A stretch of DNA of 64,000 bases from a bacterium (GTDB lineage: Bacteria; UBA8248). The notes below the pieces were generated by a model. The model had not been told where the DNA came from, did no database searches, and saw nothing but the letters and a program-made list of their open reading frames with translations. A program made the position numbers and the translations under genes. Shown one piece after another: positions 3,687 to 61,731 of this stretch (position 1 is the first letter of the stretch; every line of letters starts with the position of its first letter). The DNA is taken from contig OZ242260.1 in assembly GCA_965207065.1 (NCBI GenBank), forward strand, positions 4,288,001 to 4,352,000. The letters run 5' to 3'.

Positions 3687-4462
3687 ACCAGGGCTCCTAT
3701 TTGCTGGCCATCGACGTGGGCAACACGCAGACCGTCGTGGGGCTTTTCGACGGAGAAGAACTCGCCTCGAGCTGGCGGCTCGGCTCCGTGGCCCGCCGCA
3801 CGACGGATGAGCTGGCCATACTCATGGAAGGCTTGTTCCGGCTCGGGAAGCACCAGATGTCGGACGTGGGCCGCGTGGTAATCGCGAGCGTCGTCCCTCC
3901 ACTGGGGCCGAACCTCGAGGAGATGGCCATACGCTATTTCGGCGTGAAACCGCTGGTCGTCGGCCCGGGGATACGAACAGGCATCTCCATAAAATACGAG
4001 AACCCCCGCGAAGTGGGAGCGGACAGGATCGTCAACGCCGTCGCGGGCCACCACCTCTACGGCGGGCCCTTGGTGATCGTCGATTTCGGAACGGCCATCA
4101 CCTTCGACGCGATATCCACTGCGGGAGAATACCTGGGCGGCGCCATTTCGCCCGGCCTCGGCATCGCCCTGGAAGCGCTCATCGACAAAACGGCCAGGCT
4201 CCCCCGGGTCGAAACCGCCGTGCCGCCCTCCGTGATCGGAAAAAACACGGTCCACAGCATTCAATCCGGCATCGCGTACGGGTACCGGGGTCTGGTCAGG
4301 GAAATCGTCGAGCGCATGAAAACAGAACTCGGAAACGATACGAAGGTCGTCGCTACGGGCGGCCAGAGTCTGGCGTTGGGTGGAGAAGAAGGGGTTTTCG
4401 ACCTGATCAACCCCGAGTTGACCCTCCTGGGTCTGCGCCTAATCGCCGAGAGAAATCCTTGA
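3683..4462 (+). CDS. coaX: Type III pantothenate kinase
   Basis: LAIDVGNT, GADR, VDFGTAITFD, GGAISPG, ATGG motifs; ATGA overlap with birA. Confidence 0.96.
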   Translation: MNQGSYLLAIDVGNTQTVVGLFDGEELASSWRLGSVARRTTDELAILMEGLFRLGKHQMSDVGRVVIASVVPPLGPNLEEMAIRYFGVKPLVVGPGIRTGISIKYENPREVGADRIVNAVAGHHLYGGPLVIVDFGTAITFDAISTAGEYLGGAISPGLGIALEALIDKTARLPRVETAVPPSVIGKNTVHSIQSGIAYGYRGLVREIVERMKTELGNDTKVVATGGQSLALGGEEGVFDLINPELTLLGLRLIAERNP

Positions 4463-15786: not shown

Positions 15787-16043
15787 GGGGCTGTTGAATA
15801 ACCCCTCGTTGGGGGGAGTACTTCCTCCCGAAGATTCGTAGCGGCAGCCCTGAGGAGGGGCTGTCCCACAGGTCACGGACCTGTCCCTACGGCGGCGTCC
15901 CTCGATACGGCGCGCAAGCGCGCCTACTCGGGATGATGGAGGGGGTTTTACGGATACCGTTCGGGACAAGGGGGGTATTGCGCACAAGGGCGGCGAATGC
16001 GCCGCAGGCGCTTTCCCTCTCAAGGGGGTTTTTCAACAATCCC
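15787..16043. mobile_element. MITE-like element with GTTGA-type inverted ends
   Basis: GGGGCTGTTGAATAACCCC (15787-15805) and inverted GGGGGTTTTTCAACAATCCC (16024-16043), 16/19 match; palindrome-rich non-coding interior. Confidence 0.55.
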
Positions 16044-16060
16044 AAGGCGGGAGGGTTCGA

Positions 16061-16381
16061 TTACCTGGTTCGTTCGATGAGCGCGCGCAGGGCCATGCGG
16101 CTTTCCGCCTGCCCGTCGATAAGTTCGCGCAGGGTCATGCGGCTTTCCGCCTGCCCGTCGATGAGTTCGCGCAGGGCCGCCATCGACTCCTCGTGCCTGA
16201 GCCGGGATTCGGCCATCGACTCCTCGTGTCTGCGCTCGGATTCGGTCATCGTCTCATTGTGCTTGCGTTCGGAGTCGGCGGCGCGCATTTCGGCGCCCTT
16301 CGCCATGACGCGGATTCCGTAGAAGATCAGCGCGAGGCCGCCGTAGGAGGCGATGAGGTTGAGGTATTCATACGTCGTCAT
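16061..16381 (-). CDS. Small membrane-anchored coiled-coil repeat protein (106 aa), paralogue of the 58.5-59.7 kb proteins
   Basis: MTT start, hydrophobic N-terminus, RRHEESM repeats, ALIERT end; SD AGGGAG; promoter TTGACG-N18-TATACT (16463-16434). Confidence 0.75.
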   Translation of the reverse strand: MTTYEYLNLIASYGGLALIFYGIRVMAKGAEMRAADSERKHNETMTESERRHEESMAESRLRHEESMAALRELIDGQAESRMTLRELIDGQAESRMALRALIERTR

Positions 16382-16476: not shown

Positions 16477-17124
16477 GGGCCTGTTGAACTCCCTTCCAGG
16501 GGTTGTTGAAAAACCCTCGCCGGGGGGTAGCGAACGCTCCCTCCCCGGTCGGGTCAAGCCCTTATTCATCAATCGCGTTTTACCCCCAACCCCCCTGTGA
16601 AGGGGTCGTTGATAAAGTCCCGATTTTGTGATTCGGCGCATGTAATCAACAGACGAGAGAGAAGAATCACTCCCCCCTTGAGGGTCGGTCTATCCTCCTC
16701 GGGTAGACCGACGAAGAGCTGAGGGCGTAAGCCCGAAAGCGATTCGGTGGGGGGTATAACTCGGAGTGGCGATAAAACGCAATTCACCCCCCACCGATTC
16801 AGCCTTCGCACAAAACGCTCGGCTTCATCGTCGGGCATTCCCCTCGGGATGCCCGACCCTCAAGGGGGGAGTGATATCTCTTTTCTCGTCGGTTGCGTCG
16901 AATCCTCATTGATTGGGACTTTTTCAACAGACCCTTGTCAGAGGGGCTTTTCTTTCACCCCCTCGTCGGGGGGTATCCGCTTTGCCCCCCTGACAAGGGG
17001 GGACAGGGGGGTTTCTTTTCCAGTCAAGAAAGGCGGACACGCAGGTCCGCCCCTACAAAGCCATCACACACCCCGGTCAACTTCATACACCGAATCACGA
17101 AACCAGGGCTTCTTCAACCGCCCC
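16477..17124. repeat. Nested MITE/REP-like inverted-repeat cluster
   Basis: GTTGA-type ends at 16477, 16499 and 16602, with inverted partners at 16915-16934 and 17105-17124. Inner perfect 23-bp inverted repeat at 16666-16688/16853-16875. Confidence 0.65.
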
Positions 17125-55936: not shown

Positions 55937-58423
55937 ATGACGCGAAAACCCCGAACAACCCGCCCCAGAAGAGGGACCCCACCTCCACAAGCGGGCCTTT
56001 TTCCGCAAGACGGCACCGAACTGACAGGCGCGGTGGAGCGAATTCGCTTCCGCGCGGATGACACCGGCTACACCGTCCTGCTCGTCCAGCCGGACAACGA
56101 GGATTTCCCGCGCGTGGCCGTTGTGGGCTATCTCTCCTCCATCCGCGAGGGCGAGCGCGTGCGCTTCGAGGGCGGCTGGAAGGACCACCCCAGGTTCGGC
56201 CGCCAGTTCCACGCCGATCTCGCGCGTCCTTTGGAGCCTACGACGATCGAGGGAATCGAAAAGTACCTGGCTTCGGGCATCGTGAAGAACATCGGCCCCG
56301 CGCTGGCCAGGAGAATCGTGGCGCGTTTCGGGGAGAAATCTCTCGATATTCTGGACAGCCACCCGGAGCGCCTCATGGAAGTCGCCGGTCTGGGCGCGAA
56401 GAAGCTCGAAGCCATCGTCGAGAGCTGGAAGAGCCAGAGCGAGGTCAAGGAAATCATGCTCTTCCTGCGGCAATACGACGTCCCCCTCCATCTGTCGGAA
56501 AAAATCTTGAGAACCTACGGCGAGGCGTCCATACGGGTACTGCGCGAAGACCCCTTCCGGCTGGCGTCGGAGATTCACGGCGTCGGCTTCAAGAGCGCGG
56601 ACCGCATTGCGCAGAAACTGGGCATCCCGGCGGACTCTCCCAAACGCCTGGCTGCAGGGGCCGTCTACGTGCTCAACCAACTCGCCGAGCGCGAGGGTCA
56701 CTGCTTTCTTCCCTATGGTGATCTGATCGAGACAGCAGCCGAAATGCTCGAGACGGAAGCCGATGCCTTGACACCCGTCCTCGAGAGCCTGGGCCAGGGC
56801 AGCTCGGTGGTGATCGAATCAGCGAACATGGCCGAGAATCTCGCTTCGCCCGAGGGCAAGCGCGTCTACGCACGCCCGCTCTACGCCGCGGAATGCGAGG
56901 TCGCCCGCCGGCTCGCCGCGCTCATCCGCACACCGCGCGACGAGGCGCGCCTCGAGGCCGCCATGCGGGGACAGGGGGCGCCCGGCGCCACGACGAAGGA
57001 GCGCCTGGGCCACCTCGCCCGGCGCGCGCTCGAGGGCGGCATGGCGACCAAAGATCAGGGGGCGGCCATCGAGGGCGCGCTCACGCAGAAGGTGCTCATC
57101 GTCACGGGCGGCCCCGGCACCGGCAAGACGACCATCGTAAGCGCCGTCACGAACCTCTATACGAAACTGGGCCTCCAGGTCATCCTGGGCGCACCCACGG
57201 GACGTGCGGCCAAGCGCCTCTCGGAAGTCACCGGCCACGAGGCGGCCACCATCCACAGATTGCTCGAATACAGCTGGCACTCGGGCGGTTTCACCCGCGA
57301 TGCGGAAAACCCGCTCACGGGCGACATCGTGATCATCGACGAAGCCTCGATGCTCGACGTGCACCTCACAGCCCATCTTCTGCGCGCGGTGCCCGACCCG
57401 GCGACGCTCGTCCTGGTGGGGGACGTGGACCAGCTCCCCTCCGTGGGTCCCGGCAACGTCCTGAGCGACGTCATCACCTCCGATACCCTGCCCGTCGCGC
57501 GGCTCACCGAGGTTTTCCGCCAGGCGCAGGAGAGTCTCATCGTCGAGAACGCCCACCGCGTGAACCGCGGCGAAATGCCCCGAAACGGCAAGGGGGAAAA
57601 AGAAGACGCGCCGCTCGATTACTACTTCATAGAGGAAAGCGAGGCGGAGCGGGGCGCTGACCTCATCATCGAACTGTGCCGCGAGCGCATTCCCGAGCGA
57701 TTCGGCGTCGACGCCATCGCCGATCTCCAGGTCATCTCCCCCATGCAGCGCGGCGTGCTCGGCGTGCAGAGCCTGAACGCCCGCCTACAGGAAGCGCTCA
57801 ACCCTGCCGGAAACGCACCCGCACTCCAGAGCGGAGGCCGCATTTTCCGCACCGGGGACAAGCTCATCCAGGTGCGGAACAACTACGACAAGGACGTGTT
57901 CAACGGCGACATCGGCGTCGTCAAAAGCGTCAAGACCGAAGAGGGCAGCATTCGCGTGGGCTTCGATTCGAACGTCGTCGAATACACGCGTAGCGCGCTC
58001 GATGAGGTGATGCACGCCTACGCCATCACCGTTCACAAGAGCCAGGGCAGCGAATACCCCGCCGTCGTCATTCCGCTCCACACCCAGCATTTTCCGATGC
58101 TGCAGAGAAACCTCGTCTACACCGCGCTCACGCGCGCAAAGCGTCTGGCGGTGTTCGTCGGATCGAAAAAGGCGCTCGGGATGGCGATTGGAAACGCGCG
58201 CGTGAGAAGAAGGTGGAGCGGTCTGCCCGAAAGAATCCGCCGCGAGGCGAATCTCGCCCCGCTCCTCAGGGAGCCCTCCTCTGCCCCGCAGGAGGCAGAA
58301 GCCGATGAGGCGCAATTCACCGAAGACGCCCCGCCGGATGCCCTGTATGAAGATGAAGCGACCGAGGGCGGCGGGGACCCCTCATCCGATGACGAACTGA
58401 CCTACCACCCCGTGGATGAGTAG
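55937..58423 (+). CDS. recD2: ATP-dependent RecD-like (RecD2) helicase
   Basis: N-terminal OB and HhH regions, GGPGTGKTT, DEASM, GDVDQLPSVG, HKSQGSE, YTALTRAK; acidic tail. Confidence 0.96.
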   Translation: MTRKPRTTRPRRGTPPPQAGLFPQDGTELTGAVERIRFRADDTGYTVLLVQPDNEDFPRVAVVGYLSSIREGERVRFEGGWKDHPRFGRQFHADLARPLEPTTIEGIEKYLASGIVKNIGPALARRIVARFGEKSLDILDSHPERLMEVAGLGAKKLEAIVESWKSQSEVKEIMLFLRQYDVPLHLSEKILRTYGEASIRVLREDPFRLASEIHGVGFKSADRIAQKLGIPADSPKRLAAGAVYVLNQLAEREGHCFLPYGDLIETAAEMLETEADALTPVLESLGQGSSVVIESANMAENLASPEGKRVYARPLYAAECEVARRLAALIRTPRDEARLEAAMRGQGAPGATTKERLGHLARRALEGGMATKDQGAAIEGALTQKVLIVTGGPGTGKTTIVSAVTNLYTKLGLQVILGAPTGRAAKRLSEVTGHEAATIHRLLEYSWHSGGFTRDAENPLTGDIVIIDEASMLDVHLTAHLLRAVPDPATLVLVGDVDQLPSVGPGNVLSDVITSDTLPVARLTEVFRQAQESLIVENAHRVNRGEMPRNGKGEKEDAPLDYYFIEESEAERGADLIIELCRERIPERFGVDAIADLQVISPMQRGVLGVQSLNARLQEALNPAGNAPALQSGGRIFRTGDKLIQVRNNYDKDVFNGDIGVVKSVKTEEGSIRVGFDSNVVEYTRSALDEVMHAYAITVHKSQGSEYPAVVIPLHTQHFPMLQRNLVYTALTRAKRLAVFVGSKKALGMAIGNARVRRRWSGLPERIRREANLAPLLREPSSAPQEAEADEAQFTEDAPPDALYEDEATEGGGDPSSDDELTYHPVDE

Positions 58424-58440
58424 CGGAGGTTCGCCGCAAC

Positions 58441-58465
58441 AAAAAAACCTGTCCCGGAAGACAGG
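58441..58465 (-). terminator. Intrinsic terminator, cassette 1
   Basis: CCTGTC/GACAGG hairpin plus T7 on the minus strand; equivalents at 58954-58976 and 59381-59400. Confidence 0.7.
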
Positions 58466-58491
58466 GGCGGTATGGCTTGTGGGAAACGCTT

Positions 58492-58770
58492 TTACTTCGC
58501 TGTCCGTTCGATGAGGGTCTTGAGGGCGATCATGGACCCTTCATGGTTTTTCATGTTTTCCTCATGTTTCTTCATGTTTTCTTCGTGCTTCTTCATGTTT
58601 TCGGCATGATTTTTCATGACCTCATCATGGCGTCTCGCGCTTTCCCTTTCCCTCAATTCCGAGGCACGGCTCATCTGCCTGAGGCCCATCAAGATGAGGG
58701 CGCACTGCGCTAGACCGATGAGGGACTGCACGGCGTAGAACCCGAGCGTCGCGATCTGAAATGTCGTCAT
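58492..58770 (-). CDS. Small membrane-anchored coiled-coil protein, copy 1 (92 aa)
   Basis: MTTFQIATLGFY...ALKTLIERTAK; GAGG SD; promoter TTGCGG-N17-TAGTAT; 21-bp internal repeats. Confidence 0.8.
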   Translation of the reverse strand: MTTFQIATLGFYAVQSLIGLAQCALILMGLRQMSRASELRERESARRHDEVMKNHAENMKKHEENMKKHEENMKNHEGSMIALKTLIERTAK

Positions 58771-59000
58771 TGCTTCTTCCTCGCGGGTCCGTTGTTTTCG
58801 CTCTGCGGACACCATGGCCTCGCGTTCCATGGCCCGCAAGCTCAGACAAAATACTAGTCCCTTTTCCGTTCCCCCGCAAGATTCGGACTATTAGTAATAA
58901 CGATTTGACCTACCACCCAGTGGATGAGTAGGGGAGGTTTGACGCAACAAAAAGCCCCGTCCCGGAGGACAGGGGCGAAATGGCTGGTGGTAGGCGAGGG

Positions 59001-59195
59001 TTACTTCGCAGTCCGTTCGATGAGCGCCTTGAGCGCGGTCATCGACTCCTCATGTCGCCTTGCGCTATCTTTTTCTCTCAATTCCGTGGCGCGGCTCATC
59101 TGCTTCAAGCCCATCAAGATGAGCAGGCACTGCGCGAGGCCGATCAAGGACTGGATAGCGTAGAACCCGAGCGACGCGATTTGAAATGTCGTCAT
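59001..59195 (-). CDS. Small membrane-anchored coiled-coil protein, copy 2 (64 aa)
   Basis: Paralogue of copy 1; promoter TTGCGA-N17-TAGTGT. Confidence 0.8.
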   Translation of the reverse strand: MTTFQIASLGFYAIQSLIGLAQCLLILMGLKQMSRATELREKDSARRHEESMTALKALIERTAK

Positions 59196-59425
59196 TTCAT
59201 TTTCCTCACGGGTCTCTTGTTATCACCCGGCGAATTCCATGGCCTCGAATCCCATGGTCCGCAACCCTGGGTAAAACACTATCCCCTATCGCGCTCAATC
59301 GCAAGATTCGGACTTTTAGTGATAACGATTTGACCTACCACCCCGTGGATGAGTAGGGGAGGTTTGACGCAACAAAAAGACCCCGTCCCGGAGGACGGGG
59401 CTGGATAGGTGTTGGGATGCGGAGG

Positions 59426-59653
59426 CTACTTCGCTGTTCTCTCGATGAGCGCCTTGAGCGCCGTCATCGACTCGGCATGTTTTTCGGCATGATTATTCAT
59501 GGCCTCCTCATGCCGCCTCGCGCTCTCTCTTTCCCTCAATTCCGAGGCGCGGCTCATCTGCCTGAGGCCCATCAAGATGAGGGCGCACTGCGCGAGGCCG
59601 ATGAGGGACTGTATGGCGTAGAACCCGAGCGTCGCGATTTGAAACGTCGTCAT
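59426..59653 (-). CDS. Small membrane-anchored coiled-coil protein, copy 3 (75 aa)
   Basis: Paralogue of copy 1; promoter TTGCGG-N17-TAGAGT. Confidence 0.8.
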   Translation of the reverse strand: MTTFQIATLGFYAIQSLIGLAQCALILMGLRQMSRASELRERESARRHEEAMNNHAEKHAESMTALKALIERTAK

Positions 59654-59782
59654 TGCTTCTTCCTCGCGGGTCCATAGTTTTTTCCCTGCGGAACGCCATA
59701 GCCTCGCGCTCCATGGCCCGCAATCCTGGATAAAACTCTATCCCCTTTCGCGCTCAACCGCAAGATTCGGGCCTGCTGCAAC

Positions 59783-60811
59783 TTACGGCTTCAGCACCAC
59801 CTTAAGCGACTCCCCCGCTTCGGCGACGAGGCGGAAGCCCTCCTGCGCCTGCTCGAGCGGGAGCCTGTGGGTGATCATCTCCTCGGCATCGATGCGTCCG
59901 GTGCTGATGAGCGCAAGCGCTTCTTCCAGATCGAGCGGAGCCGCGCCGTATGTGGTGGTGAGGGCGATCTGCTCGCTCCAGATCCGGTTCAAATCCATCG
60001 CGGGGCGGTAGCCCGGCGGCGTGGGAGCGAAAAGTTGCAGGACGCCGCACGTCGCCACGCTTGCCAGAGCCGTCTCCAAGGCCTCTGGCGCGCCGGCGCA
60101 CAGGACGACACGATCCGCCAGACGACCGTCGTTCGCCTCCCGCAAGGCTTCGGCCATATCCTCACACGGAGGCAGTGCGTGCGCGCCGAACCGCTCGACG
60201 GCTTTCAGGCGGTAAGGAGAGATGTCCGTCGCGAAAACAGGGCCCGCGCCCAACAGGCGCGCCGCCTGCACGTGCAGAAGGCCGGACATACCGCTCCCCA
60301 CCACGAGGACGCTCAGGCCCGGCATCATCCGGAAGCGCCGCCAGCCGCGCAGTACGCAACCCATCGGCTCAATGAGCACGCCCGCATCGTCGGACACTCC
60401 ATCGGGCAGGCGGAACGCGCCCCGCTCCACGTTGATGGCCGGCAGACGGATGAACTCGGCGAAACCGCCGGGGTCGAAATTCGTAGATTTCAGCATCTCA
60501 CAAGCCGTGTGGTCGCCGCGTAAACAAAGCGCGCATCGGTTGCACGGCACGTGGTGGGTGACGCAGACGCGGTCGCCGACGCAAAAGCCATCCACCCCCT
60601 CGCCCGCCTCTGCCACGACGCCCGTCACCTCGTGGCCCAGAACCCGCGGCGCGCTCCCCACCCGGTACCACTCCATGACGTCGCTTCCGCAGATGCCGCT
60701 CGCGCGCGTCTCAACCAGAAGCTCACCCGCACCGGCGCGGGGTTTTTCCACTTCCTCGATCCGCACGTCGTCGTTTCGATAATAGACCGCCGCTCGCATG
60801 GTGTCAGGCAT
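59783..60811 (-). CDS. Zinc-dependent (MDR family) dehydrogenase
   Basis: GICGSD, LGHE, CNRCALC...C structural Zn site, VGSGMSG, ITHRLPL. Confidence 0.92.
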   Translation of the reverse strand: MPDTMRAAVYYRNDDVRIEEVEKPRAGAGELLVETRASGICGSDVMEWYRVGSAPRVLGHEVTGVVAEAGEGVDGFCVGDRVCVTHHVPCNRCALCLRGDHTACEMLKSTNFDPGGFAEFIRLPAINVERGAFRLPDGVSDDAGVLIEPMGCVLRGWRRFRMMPGLSVLVVGSGMSGLLHVQAARLLGAGPVFATDISPYRLKAVERFGAHALPPCEDMAEALREANDGRLADRVVLCAGAPEALETALASVATCGVLQLFAPTPPGYRPAMDLNRIWSEQIALTTTYGAAPLDLEEALALISTGRIDAEEMITHRLPLEQAQEGFRLVAEAGESLKVVLKP

Positions 60812-60840
60812 GATAATGCTTCCCGGGTTACGCGCAGACT

Positions 60841-61731
60841 TCAATCCGTGAGGGGCGCAACGCTCAAATCCTCGAACATCTCATAGGCGGCGTCGGGGCT
60901 CAGGTCTTCATGCACGACGGCGCGAACCGCCCGGATCATGGCGACCGGATGCGCGCTCTGGAAGATGTTCCGGCCCATGTCCACGCCCACCGCTCCCTCA
61001 TCGATGGCCCGGCGGCAGAATGCGAGCGCCTCGCGCTCGGGGACCTTCTTGCCCCCCGCGATGACGATGGGCGCGAAACAACCGCGCACCACGCGCTCAA
61101 AACCCTCGCAGTAGTAGGTCTTGACGACGTCCGCCCCGTGCTCGGCCGCGATGCGCGTCGCAAGACCCAGATAGCGGGCGTCGCGCGTCATCTCCTTGCC
61201 CACCGCCGTGATGCCCAAGACGATCAGACCCTCCCGGCGGCCCTCGTCGCTCATGCGGGCGAGGTTCAGGATGGATTCTTTCTGGTAGCGCGCGCCCACG
61301 TAGACCGACACCGAAACGCCCGCCACGCCAAGGCGCGCCGCCTCCGCCGCCGAGACTGTGATGGACTCGTTCGAGAGTTCGCGGTTCACGATTTCATCGG
61401 CGATTTGCCCTCTCAGCGCCTCGCGCGCCGTCTCATCCGCAAGGCCCGCCGACCGGATGCTCAACTCGCGCTCAAGCTCCACGGGGTCTGAATAGACGAT
61501 GGCGTTTCCGCCCGATGCCCGGAGAATTACGGGCGTCTTGCTCTCTGGCGGCATGCAGCGCAGGAAGACGCCCTTCGTGGGACTGACCGCGTCGCACCAG
61601 GCCAACAGGGGTTCGACCGTCTTCCCCGGTTCTTCGAGGCCCGAGGTCGGCCCCTGGAAATAGCCGTGGTCCACCGCCAGCATGACGATGCGCCCCGTCT
61701 TCTCGTTCATGATTTTCATATGGTCAGACAT
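60841..61731 (-). CDS. lsrF: LsrF-like class I aldolase/thiolase
   Basis: MLAVDHGYFQGPT, TAVGKEMTRD, VKTYY, IAGGKK, GVDMGRNIFQS. Confidence 0.85.
   Translation of the reverse strand: MSDHMKIMNEKTGRIVMLAVDHGYFQGPTSGLEEPGKTVEPLLAWCDAVSPTKGVFLRCMPPESKTPVILRASGGNAIVYSDPVELERELSIRSAGLADETAREALRGQIADEIVNRELSNESITVSAAEAARLGVAGVSVSVYVGARYQKESILNLARMSDEGRREGLIVLGITAVGKEMTRDARYLGLATRIAAEHGADVVKTYYCEGFERVVRGCFAPIVIAGGKKVPEREALAFCRRAIDEGAVGVDMGRNIFQSAHPVAMIRAVRAVVHEDLSPDAAYEMFEDLSVAPLTD

Follow-up and report, generated by a model that had tools for sequence, protein, structure and literature searches.

Three tandem cassettes, each carrying a gene for a small putative membrane protein, fill the intergenic region behind recD2 in a 64,000-nucleotide stretch of bacterial contig OZ242260.1 (hereafter the window), and they belong to an unnamed, still expanding family of autonomous small-membrane-protein cassettes in sponge-associated Nitrospinota, with about 25 copies per genome. 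The array (58424..59782, minus strand; coordinates are those of the window unless the genome is named) spans the whole interval from the stop of recD2 (58423, plus strand; gene at 55937-58423, TIGR01448 RecD2, 843.7 bits against a cut-off of 500) to the stop of a zinc-type dehydrogenase gene (ADH; stop at 59783, gene at 59783-60844, minus strand). An earlier note made from the sequence had described three diverged minus-strand units, each with promoter-like boxes, a leader, a Shine–Dalgarno (SD) sequence, an open reading frame (ORF) starting MTTFQI and a terminator, and this description is borne out by re-reading, by the repeats and by alignment.

The three ORFs are real genes under purifying selection. 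The dN/dS values among the three copies are 0.17, 0.14 and 0.15 at dS values of 0.57, 0.44 and 0.42, respectively. Across 44 array units from 17 genomes, the 913 of 946 pairs with dS between 0.05 and 2 gave a median dN/dS of 0.19, with all values below 0.5 (the pairs are not independent). Nor is the array an assembly artefact: DNA contigs from run X1, which may be the source sample, tile the entire array with zero differences, and arrays of this kind in 16 related genomes provide independent support. In addition, a contig from the metatranscriptome (RNA-seq) run X20 covers 58517-58680 with 7 differences, and contigs from runs X18 and X19, which are guessed to be RNA, cover 58670-58820 and 58576-58829, respectively. 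The contigs from these RNA runs hold small shares of the stretch (0.05-0.08) and report presence only, without strand, ends or level, and DNA carry-over is possible; they show the presence of the unit 3 gene or of a close relative's gene.

Each unit carries, on the minus strand, the promoter-like boxes TTGCG(G/A)-N17-TAG(A/T)(G/A)T, an approximately 85-nt leader, the SD sequence GAGGAA located 7-8 nt upstream of the ATG, the ORF and an intrinsic terminator. The aligned units have a mean column identity of 81%, and the direct-repeat families D1, D2 and D4 occur in three copies each, with spacings of 508/425 or 425/458 bp and identities of 69-85%. In unit 1, the boxes lie at 59735..59763 (TTGCGG at 59763-59758, 17 nt, TAGAGT at 59740-59735), followed by a leader hairpin at 59687..59723 (UUGCGGGCCAUGG, a loop containing GCGAGG, and CUAUGGCGUUCCGCA), a 75-aa ORF at 59426..59653, which has a transmembrane (TM) segment at about residues 9-30, a charged helix and the C-terminal SMTALKALIERTAK, and a terminator at 59370..59401 with a 9-bp stem and a T-run. 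Unit 2 has boxes at 59276..59304 (TTGCGA, 17 nt, TAGTGT), a 64-aa ORF at 59001..59195, which is the shortest form and lacks the extra module, and a terminator at 58945..58974. Unit 3 has boxes at 58851..58879 (TTGCGG, 17 nt, TAGTAT), a 92-aa ORF at 58492..58770, within which 21-nt tandem repeats (58530..58634; family D3) encode (K/N)HEENMK heptads, and a terminator at 58438..58465. Seven terminator-like sites were found where 1.6 were expected, and three of them, each a G+C-rich hairpin plus a T-run, lie at the unit ends. In the output of the ORF-calling tool, unit 3 begins further upstream, at a TTG (58839), and has 115 aa. However, the orthologues in 16 related genomes begin at MTTFQI or VTTFQI, with ATG or GTG; thus, the start of unit 3 is the conserved ATG at 58770 and the 115-aa form is an over-extension.

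The earlier note had also read TTGCG(G/A)-N17-TAGnnT as a promoter. The boxes themselves hold up, as they are conserved over 45 units, but a simple sigma-70 scan with E. coli-type thresholds scored none of the sense promoter boxes. Because the boxes match the E. coli hexamers at only 3/6 + 3/6 positions, their support is this conservation rather than the consensus.

A feature that the earlier note overlooked is that the last codons of recD2 recur, as a 35-nt copy, at the end of each unit (family D2). The true recD2 3′ end at 58389..58423 (plus strand) is the template of both internal copies, at 59322..59356 (ending …LTYHPVDE and a stop) and at 58897..58931, both on the plus strand. The original duplication must therefore have extended into recD2. 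Two 56-aa ORFs on the plus strand, at 58761-58931 and 59186-59356, end in ...NDLTYHPVDE and lie antisense to the leaders; they are by-products of these copies and probably not genes.

A comparison of the locus in the 16 related genomes that were fetched, together with this genome, places the array in a stable setting with a changing number of units. The array adjoins the dehydrogenase gene in 16/16 relatives and recD2 in 15/16. The exception, locus L020 (G013:C2:1312500-1321500), holds a five-unit array with no recD2 in the fetched 9 kb, which may reflect a local rearrangement. One unit is present in three relatives, two in six, three in three (four with this genome), four in three and five in one. 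In the tree of units, two old types are separated by their TM helix, GFYAxQS and VALGIQS/WAAGIQS, the former usually adjoining recD2 and the latter lying on the dehydrogenase side; all three units of this genome are of the GFYAxQS type. Within each type, units from one genome or from close genomes cluster together, so duplications of either type have recurred. Copies of the recD2 tail are found between units in this genome and in loci L022, L025 and L033, and the spacers in L020, L023, L024 and L027 look, by eye, like degraded copies of the dehydrogenase 3′ end. The array has expanded independently among the relatives, with different breakpoints. Two leader types, A (34 units) and B (10 units), each occur with either TM type, and these mixed combinations suggest exchange between units. 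In locus L030 (G004:C3:879500-888000), a distance of about 1.3 kb separates the two units (at 3729 and 5014), compared with the usual spacing of about 450 bp, so that something intervenes.

The family extends well beyond the array. A profile built from the four window proteins was searched against the stop-to-stop ORFs of the 4.48-Mb genome and recovered 25 members with E below 0.002. The fourth window protein, which the earlier note had reported as a paralogue with its own promoter, is indeed a real but distant member by this profile search: it has 106 aa, is encoded at 16061..16381 (minus strand), belongs to the YGGLALI subfamily, contains 11-residue (R/K)HxE(S/T)M modules and has its own promoter-like boxes, TTGACG-N17-TATACT. 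Short repeats, GGGGGTTTTTCAACAA and GGGGTTGTTGAAAAACCC, flank this paralogue (at about 16020-16050 and 16490-16530) and also lie downstream of or near several other paralogues; they look like a dispersed REP-like element. Features common to all members (alignment A4) are an MT(T/E)(F/Y)(E/Q) start, one hydrophobic helix, a variable set of (R/K/Q)HxE(S/T)M modules and an AL(R/K)ELI(E/R)RT end. The member at genome 129085-129309 is truncated and lacks the N-terminus and the start of the TM helix, and the member at genome 3986288-3986536 (L043:972-1220) lacks the C-terminal LIERT motif; both are likely decaying copies.

A tandem pair near genome 2,823,000 (2823074/2823560; L004 and L005) belongs to the same family (E values of 6.0e-13 and 3.6e-12) and is 53-58% identical to the array proteins over the full-length alignment. 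Like them, this pair shows an MT(x)(F/Y)(E/Q) start, a TM helix with QC, HxExM modules and an LIERT end; it differs in being another subfamily at another locus, whereas the array keeps its genomic position across the genus, holds 1-5 units and has its own leader. The neighbours of other paralogues include an amino-acid kinase, an AtzD-type amidohydrolase, parts of ABC transporters, a CoA-transferase, a transketolase, an adenine deaminase, an Mrr nuclease and a Phd antitoxin, and no partner gene is common to the paralogue neighbourhoods inspected. Loose clusters of mixed-subfamily paralogues, 2-20 kb in extent and set amid unrelated genes, occur at genome 3985617-4005292, 4115552-4118168, 2823331-2832958, 523945-535035 and 2025029-2030261, and relative G008 has six family matches within 6 kb (3125213-3131100).

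In a phylum sample of 51 genomes, the profile matched all 22 genomes of this genus (between 1 and 35 matches per genome, with 27 here), 0/19 genomes from other genera of the family, 0/2 from two other families of the order and 1/7 from a further family. Unit 1, searched against 5.8 billion proteins, returned 76 matches, the sole name among which was 'hypothetical protein [Nitrospinae bacterium]'. The A4 profile against 1.84 billion representatives gave 578 clusters at E<=0.001, 197 of them at E<=1e-10, and of ten cluster representatives looked up, one was named, as Nitrospinota. The YGGLALI subfamily has 54 loci in the species-representative collection, with records titled Nitrospinota, Nitrospinaceae or 'MAG: bacterium', and DNA runs labelled as sponge metagenomes contain parts of the stretch, which is a lead only.

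No Pfam, NCBIfam or PHROG family matched the four window proteins, and no Pfam or PADLOC family recurred among 22 members. A Foldseek search of the AlphaFold2 (AF2) model against the PDB gave no match at E<=10, the A4 profile against PDB sequences gave two chance-level rows only (E values of 0.54 and 0.87), and look-alikes in the ESM Atlas all scored below 0.9 and are leads only. In the parts available of the searched literature on Nitrospinota sponge symbionts and their paralogues, Bdr, BhlA and small membrane proteins, with supplementary files outside the scope, the family is not described. The proposal of an expanding, uncharacterised cassette family has stood up, with 25 members here, 1-5 units per syntenic locus and no match to a named family.

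The array proteins have two conserved ends and a middle of variable length. The best 19-residue hydropathy window covers residues 9-27 and scores 1.74-1.86; the eight residues ahead of it carry no charge, and the fifteen residues after it contain four Lys or Arg against two Asp or Glu. Because of this charge distribution and the positive-inside rule, we infer an N-out, C-in topology. AlphaFold2 run without an alignment predicts unit 3 to be a single helix from residue 3 to residue 91, with a mean pLDDT of 92. In 63 array-type sequences, the invariant residues are T2, F4, L20, Q22, C23, L30, Q32, M33, R40, E41 and R46 toward the N-terminus, and S62, M63, A65, L66, L69, I70 and T73 at the C-terminus. 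Gaps fall between these two blocks, and the same pattern holds over 22 paralogues. The tails after the TM window measure 37, 48 and 65 residues in the 64-, 75- and 92-aa proteins, respectively; the length differences of 11, 17 and 28 residues all lie within the modular region, and they are insertions or deletions of 7- or 11-residue modules.

The modules are strictly periodic. In unit 3, His occurs at 48, 55, 62, 69 and 76 and Met at 52, 59, 66, 73 and 80, a period of 7, and this register runs on without a break through L83, I87 and T90, with position a of the heptad taken by Met/Ile and position d by His/Leu. Glu at e and f and Lys at b and c give two possible i to i+4 salt bridges per heptad, as read from the sequence. 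In the paralogue at 16061-16381, the period is 11 (H 41, 52, 63; M 45, 56, 67). A two-copy complex prediction for the unit 1 protein with alignment A6 (score 0.02, mark 0.42) was uninformative either way.

The leader, together with the promoter-like boxes, is preserved across the 45 units. In the 34 type-A leaders, TTGCG, CCATG, CGAGG and ACCCG are invariant. The type-A hairpin consists of UGCGGG-CCAUGG, a 9-nt loop with GCGAGG, and CCGUGG-..UUCGCA, with 93.9% of cells paired over the 34 leaders, and its variation is entirely one-sided and wobble-compatible, which fits pairing in the sense-strand RNA. However, no compensatory change was found in the type-A hairpin and shuffled controls equal it (265/500), so that the hairpin is best described as compatible with the data. 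In single-sequence folds that would sequester the SD, UUGCGGG pairs with CCCGCGAG in units 1 and 3 only, with no covariation in the alignment tests. A CCC/GGG helix over the SD pairs no better than shuffles (73.2% paired, compared with 72.7%), and SD sequestration was dropped as a claim. Rfam 15 at its gathering threshold gave no match in the whole window. A loose pattern, CCATGG..CGAGG..TGG, has six matches in the genome, three of which are the array units and three of which share the short pattern only.

Diverged paralogues share an RRCCC box located 8-10 nt upstream of a GGAG SD, the CCC of which is invariant in 44/44 rows of alignment A7, and GAGG or ACGCGAGG often lies 0-35 nt upstream of this box. 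RRCCC is found 12-34 nt before the start in 15/25 family genes here, in 39/49 loci of the YGG subfamily and in 38/45 array units, compared with 565/5407 (10.4%) of crude controls; both leader boxes together are found in 9/25, 19/49 and 37/45, respectively, compared with 2.3% of controls. Because kin are not independent, these frequencies show conservation and are not a statistical test. Of all the observations, the shared leader boxes hint most strongly at a joint regulation of the family. One could go further and suppose that the roughly 25 paralogues form one post-transcriptionally co-regulated set, with a GAGG/ACGCGAGG plus CCC leader code read by a single RNA or protein regulator, and with the proteins acting as length-coded stalks or gated permeabilising helices of a sponge-symbiont genus. 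This we regard as a speculative, rather unlikely extension; if true, it would add a new type of small-protein system as well as a new cis-regulatory RNA element. Beside the family, a 90-aa ORF at about genome 4231349 (minus strand; G000:C1) has a TM helix followed by ARVSSLE heptads and a GAGGACCC leader very like that of the member at 2025029, and it may be a more distant branch. GAGGACCC also occurs about 25-35 nt before the starts in two minus-strand tandem pairs, at genome 1630140/1630957 (secreted proteins) and 2870680/2871833 (unknown proteins), and the box may thus not be limited to the modular membrane-helix family.

As to what the proteins do, we tentatively favour a membrane-anchored helical stalk or tether whose ends are conserved, whose spacer varies in length and whose task would be to dock or organise partners at the inner membrane, a possibility which we nevertheless hold at somewhat less than even. 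Each unit is a self-contained gene whose product is a single-pass inner-membrane protein consisting essentially of one long α-helix. An 8-residue N-terminal tip would lie outside the membrane, followed by the TM helix, whose invariant Gln-Cys could drive helix–helix contacts, by a presumably cytoplasmic charged helix with a variable number of 7- or 11-residue (R/K)HxE(S/T)M modules, and by the conserved, amphipathic C-terminal motif SMxALxxLIERT. The work would be done at the TM end and by the C-terminal motif, through self-association or partner docking, and the modular middle would be a spacer setting the distance from the membrane. The genes multiply by tandem duplication and diverge mainly through gain and loss of modules. 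The stalk or tether is suggested by the conservation of both ends and by a middle in which only the length varies, and the Glu–Lys salt-bridge pattern is that of single-α-helix spacers. Several points weigh against it. The family has no homologue of known function, which leaves the mechanism to be read from architecture; the partner, the oligomer and the function of the stalk are all hypothetical; the a/d stripe of Met and His would also fit a coiled coil or a metal site; the conserved elements of the leader point to tight control of translation, as is more typical of harmful proteins; and the evidence for transcription consists of unstranded contigs.

A rival reading is that of holin-like or type-I-toxin-like cassettes, in which the TM helix would oligomerise and permeabilise the inner membrane, the structured leader would hold translation low until a stress or phage trigger, and the copies would be selfish or defensive. 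The layout matches the description of the BhlA/TpeE holins in the accessible part of PMC9527704, the cassettes stand alone in tandem arrays, a polar Gln is invariant in the TM helix, and the leader has an SD-like GCGAGG within the loop of the hairpin as well as a CCC box that lies 8-10 nt upstream of the GGAG SD and could base-pair with this SD. The nearest ESM Atlas look-alikes are clusters of phage hypothetical proteins, 15-28% of whose members carry PF10960, at scores below 0.9 and hence as leads only. However, PF10960 matches 0/22 family members at E<=1, the proteins are larger than is usual for type I toxins and have long tails under purifying selection, the SD-sequestering pairing is no better than in shuffles, and antisense promoter-like sites occur in 4/45 units against 3.0 expected (a scan that also misses the sense boxes). 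In addition, two profiles found no relatives on viral contigs, no lysis, bacteriocin or phage genes were found beside the array or in the other paralogue contexts, and a genome with 20-35 copies would bear a heavy toxin load. A permeabilising role is rated unlikely, at about one half of the weight given to the tether.

A little less probable still is that the proteins are accessory subunits, the TM helix of each paralogue binding and modulating a larger membrane complex such as a transporter, a kinase or a respiratory enzyme, with the tail adding regulation. This is the main known role of bacterial small membrane proteins according to the portion of PMC12648545 that was available, and within subfamilies the TM helix and the juxtamembrane residues are the best conserved. 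It is countered by the heterogeneous contexts, which share no conserved neighbour gene, by the unlikeness of 25 standalone-promoter paralogues to subunits of particular operons, and by the conservation of the C-terminal motif across subfamilies whose TM helices differ. The exact periodicity of His and Met (7 in unit 3, H 48-76 and M 52-80; 11 in the paralogue at 16061-16381) suits instead a metal-binding or pH-sensing helix, in which a stripe at the heptad core would bind Cu, Zn or Ni between the helices of an oligomer and would buffer or sense metal at the cytoplasmic face; (R/K)HxE(S/T)M is also the most conserved module across subfamilies, and the TM helix contains an invariant Cys. Such a role is improbable, as the shortest members have a single His (unit 2), some members (ORFs at genome 493959 and 2024406) have no His/Met modules, no metal-handling genes lie near the array or in the other paralogue contexts, and the oligomer is hypothetical. 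The stalk and its three rivals do not use up the whole probability, and the rest is assigned to no reading.

Small membrane proteins are under-annotated, and in this uncultured symbiont genus a single unnamed family contributes about 25 genes to each genome, all of them under purifying selection. A series of proteins varying only in how many 7- or 11-residue modules they contain constitutes a natural experiment on helix length at the membrane, and the leader boxes that the members share indicate a regulatory element absent from RNA family libraries. If the proteins are tethers, they would provide a bacterial example of length-coded spacers; if they are gated helices that permeabilise the membrane, the range of toxin-like and holin-like systems would become wider. 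The general kind, small single-pass helical membrane proteins in paralogous arrays, is already known. What is new here is the synteny of the locus in 16 relatives with 1-5 units, the module insertions and deletions, and the leader box common to diverged paralogues.

Among known systems, the type I toxin loci ldr/rdl and ibs/sib have a tandem layout. Like the array, such loci comprise small single-TM proteins, tandem autonomous cassettes and long leaders, and the earlier note had drawn this analogy. As a statement of membership, however, it is not supported: according to the part of PMC12648545 that was available, a length below 60 aa and extensions of just a few residues are usual for type I toxins, whereas the array proteins have 64-92 aa with conserved charged tails of 37-65 residues, and antisense promoter-like sites are not enriched in the scan that also misses the sense boxes. 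The likeness to BhlA/UviB, also raised in the earlier note, stands for the layout but not for membership. The BhlA/UviB/TpeE proteins (PF10960, TCDB 1.E.27), as described in the accessible part of PMC9527704, share with the array proteins a size of about 8-10 kDa and a single TM helix at the N-terminus, with an amphipathic or charged helix after it. Unlike them, the array proteins have a TM helix of ordinary length (about 22 residues) and a modular tail of variable length. PF10960 matched 0/4 window proteins even at E<=10, no endolysin, bacteriocin or sigma-factor gene neighbours the array locus in the 16 relatives, and no relatives were found among 2.9 million viral contigs with the profiles A5 and A6; membership in this family is not supported.

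The Bdr proteins of Borrelia carry a variable number of short internal repeats and a C-terminal anchor. The anchor of the array family is, by contrast, N-terminal. Both are multi-copy paralogues of small membrane proteins, the Bdr proteins being described, in the part of PMC10016077 that was available, as inner-membrane-associated and of unknown function. The bdr genes lie on plasmids or prophages, whereas the array genes are chromosomal and lie between housekeeping genes; no Borrelia family was present among the Pfam matches of 22 members, a comparison that did not include the Bdr sequence itself. ER/K single-α-helix spacers and hendecad stalks, e.g., subunit b of ATP synthase, combine a long charged helix, i to i+4 Glu–Lys/Arg pairs or an 11-residue periodicity, and an N-terminal TM anchor. 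The array proteins resemble these by pattern only, and they add to that pattern a Met/His stripe that is absent from those spacers and stalks.

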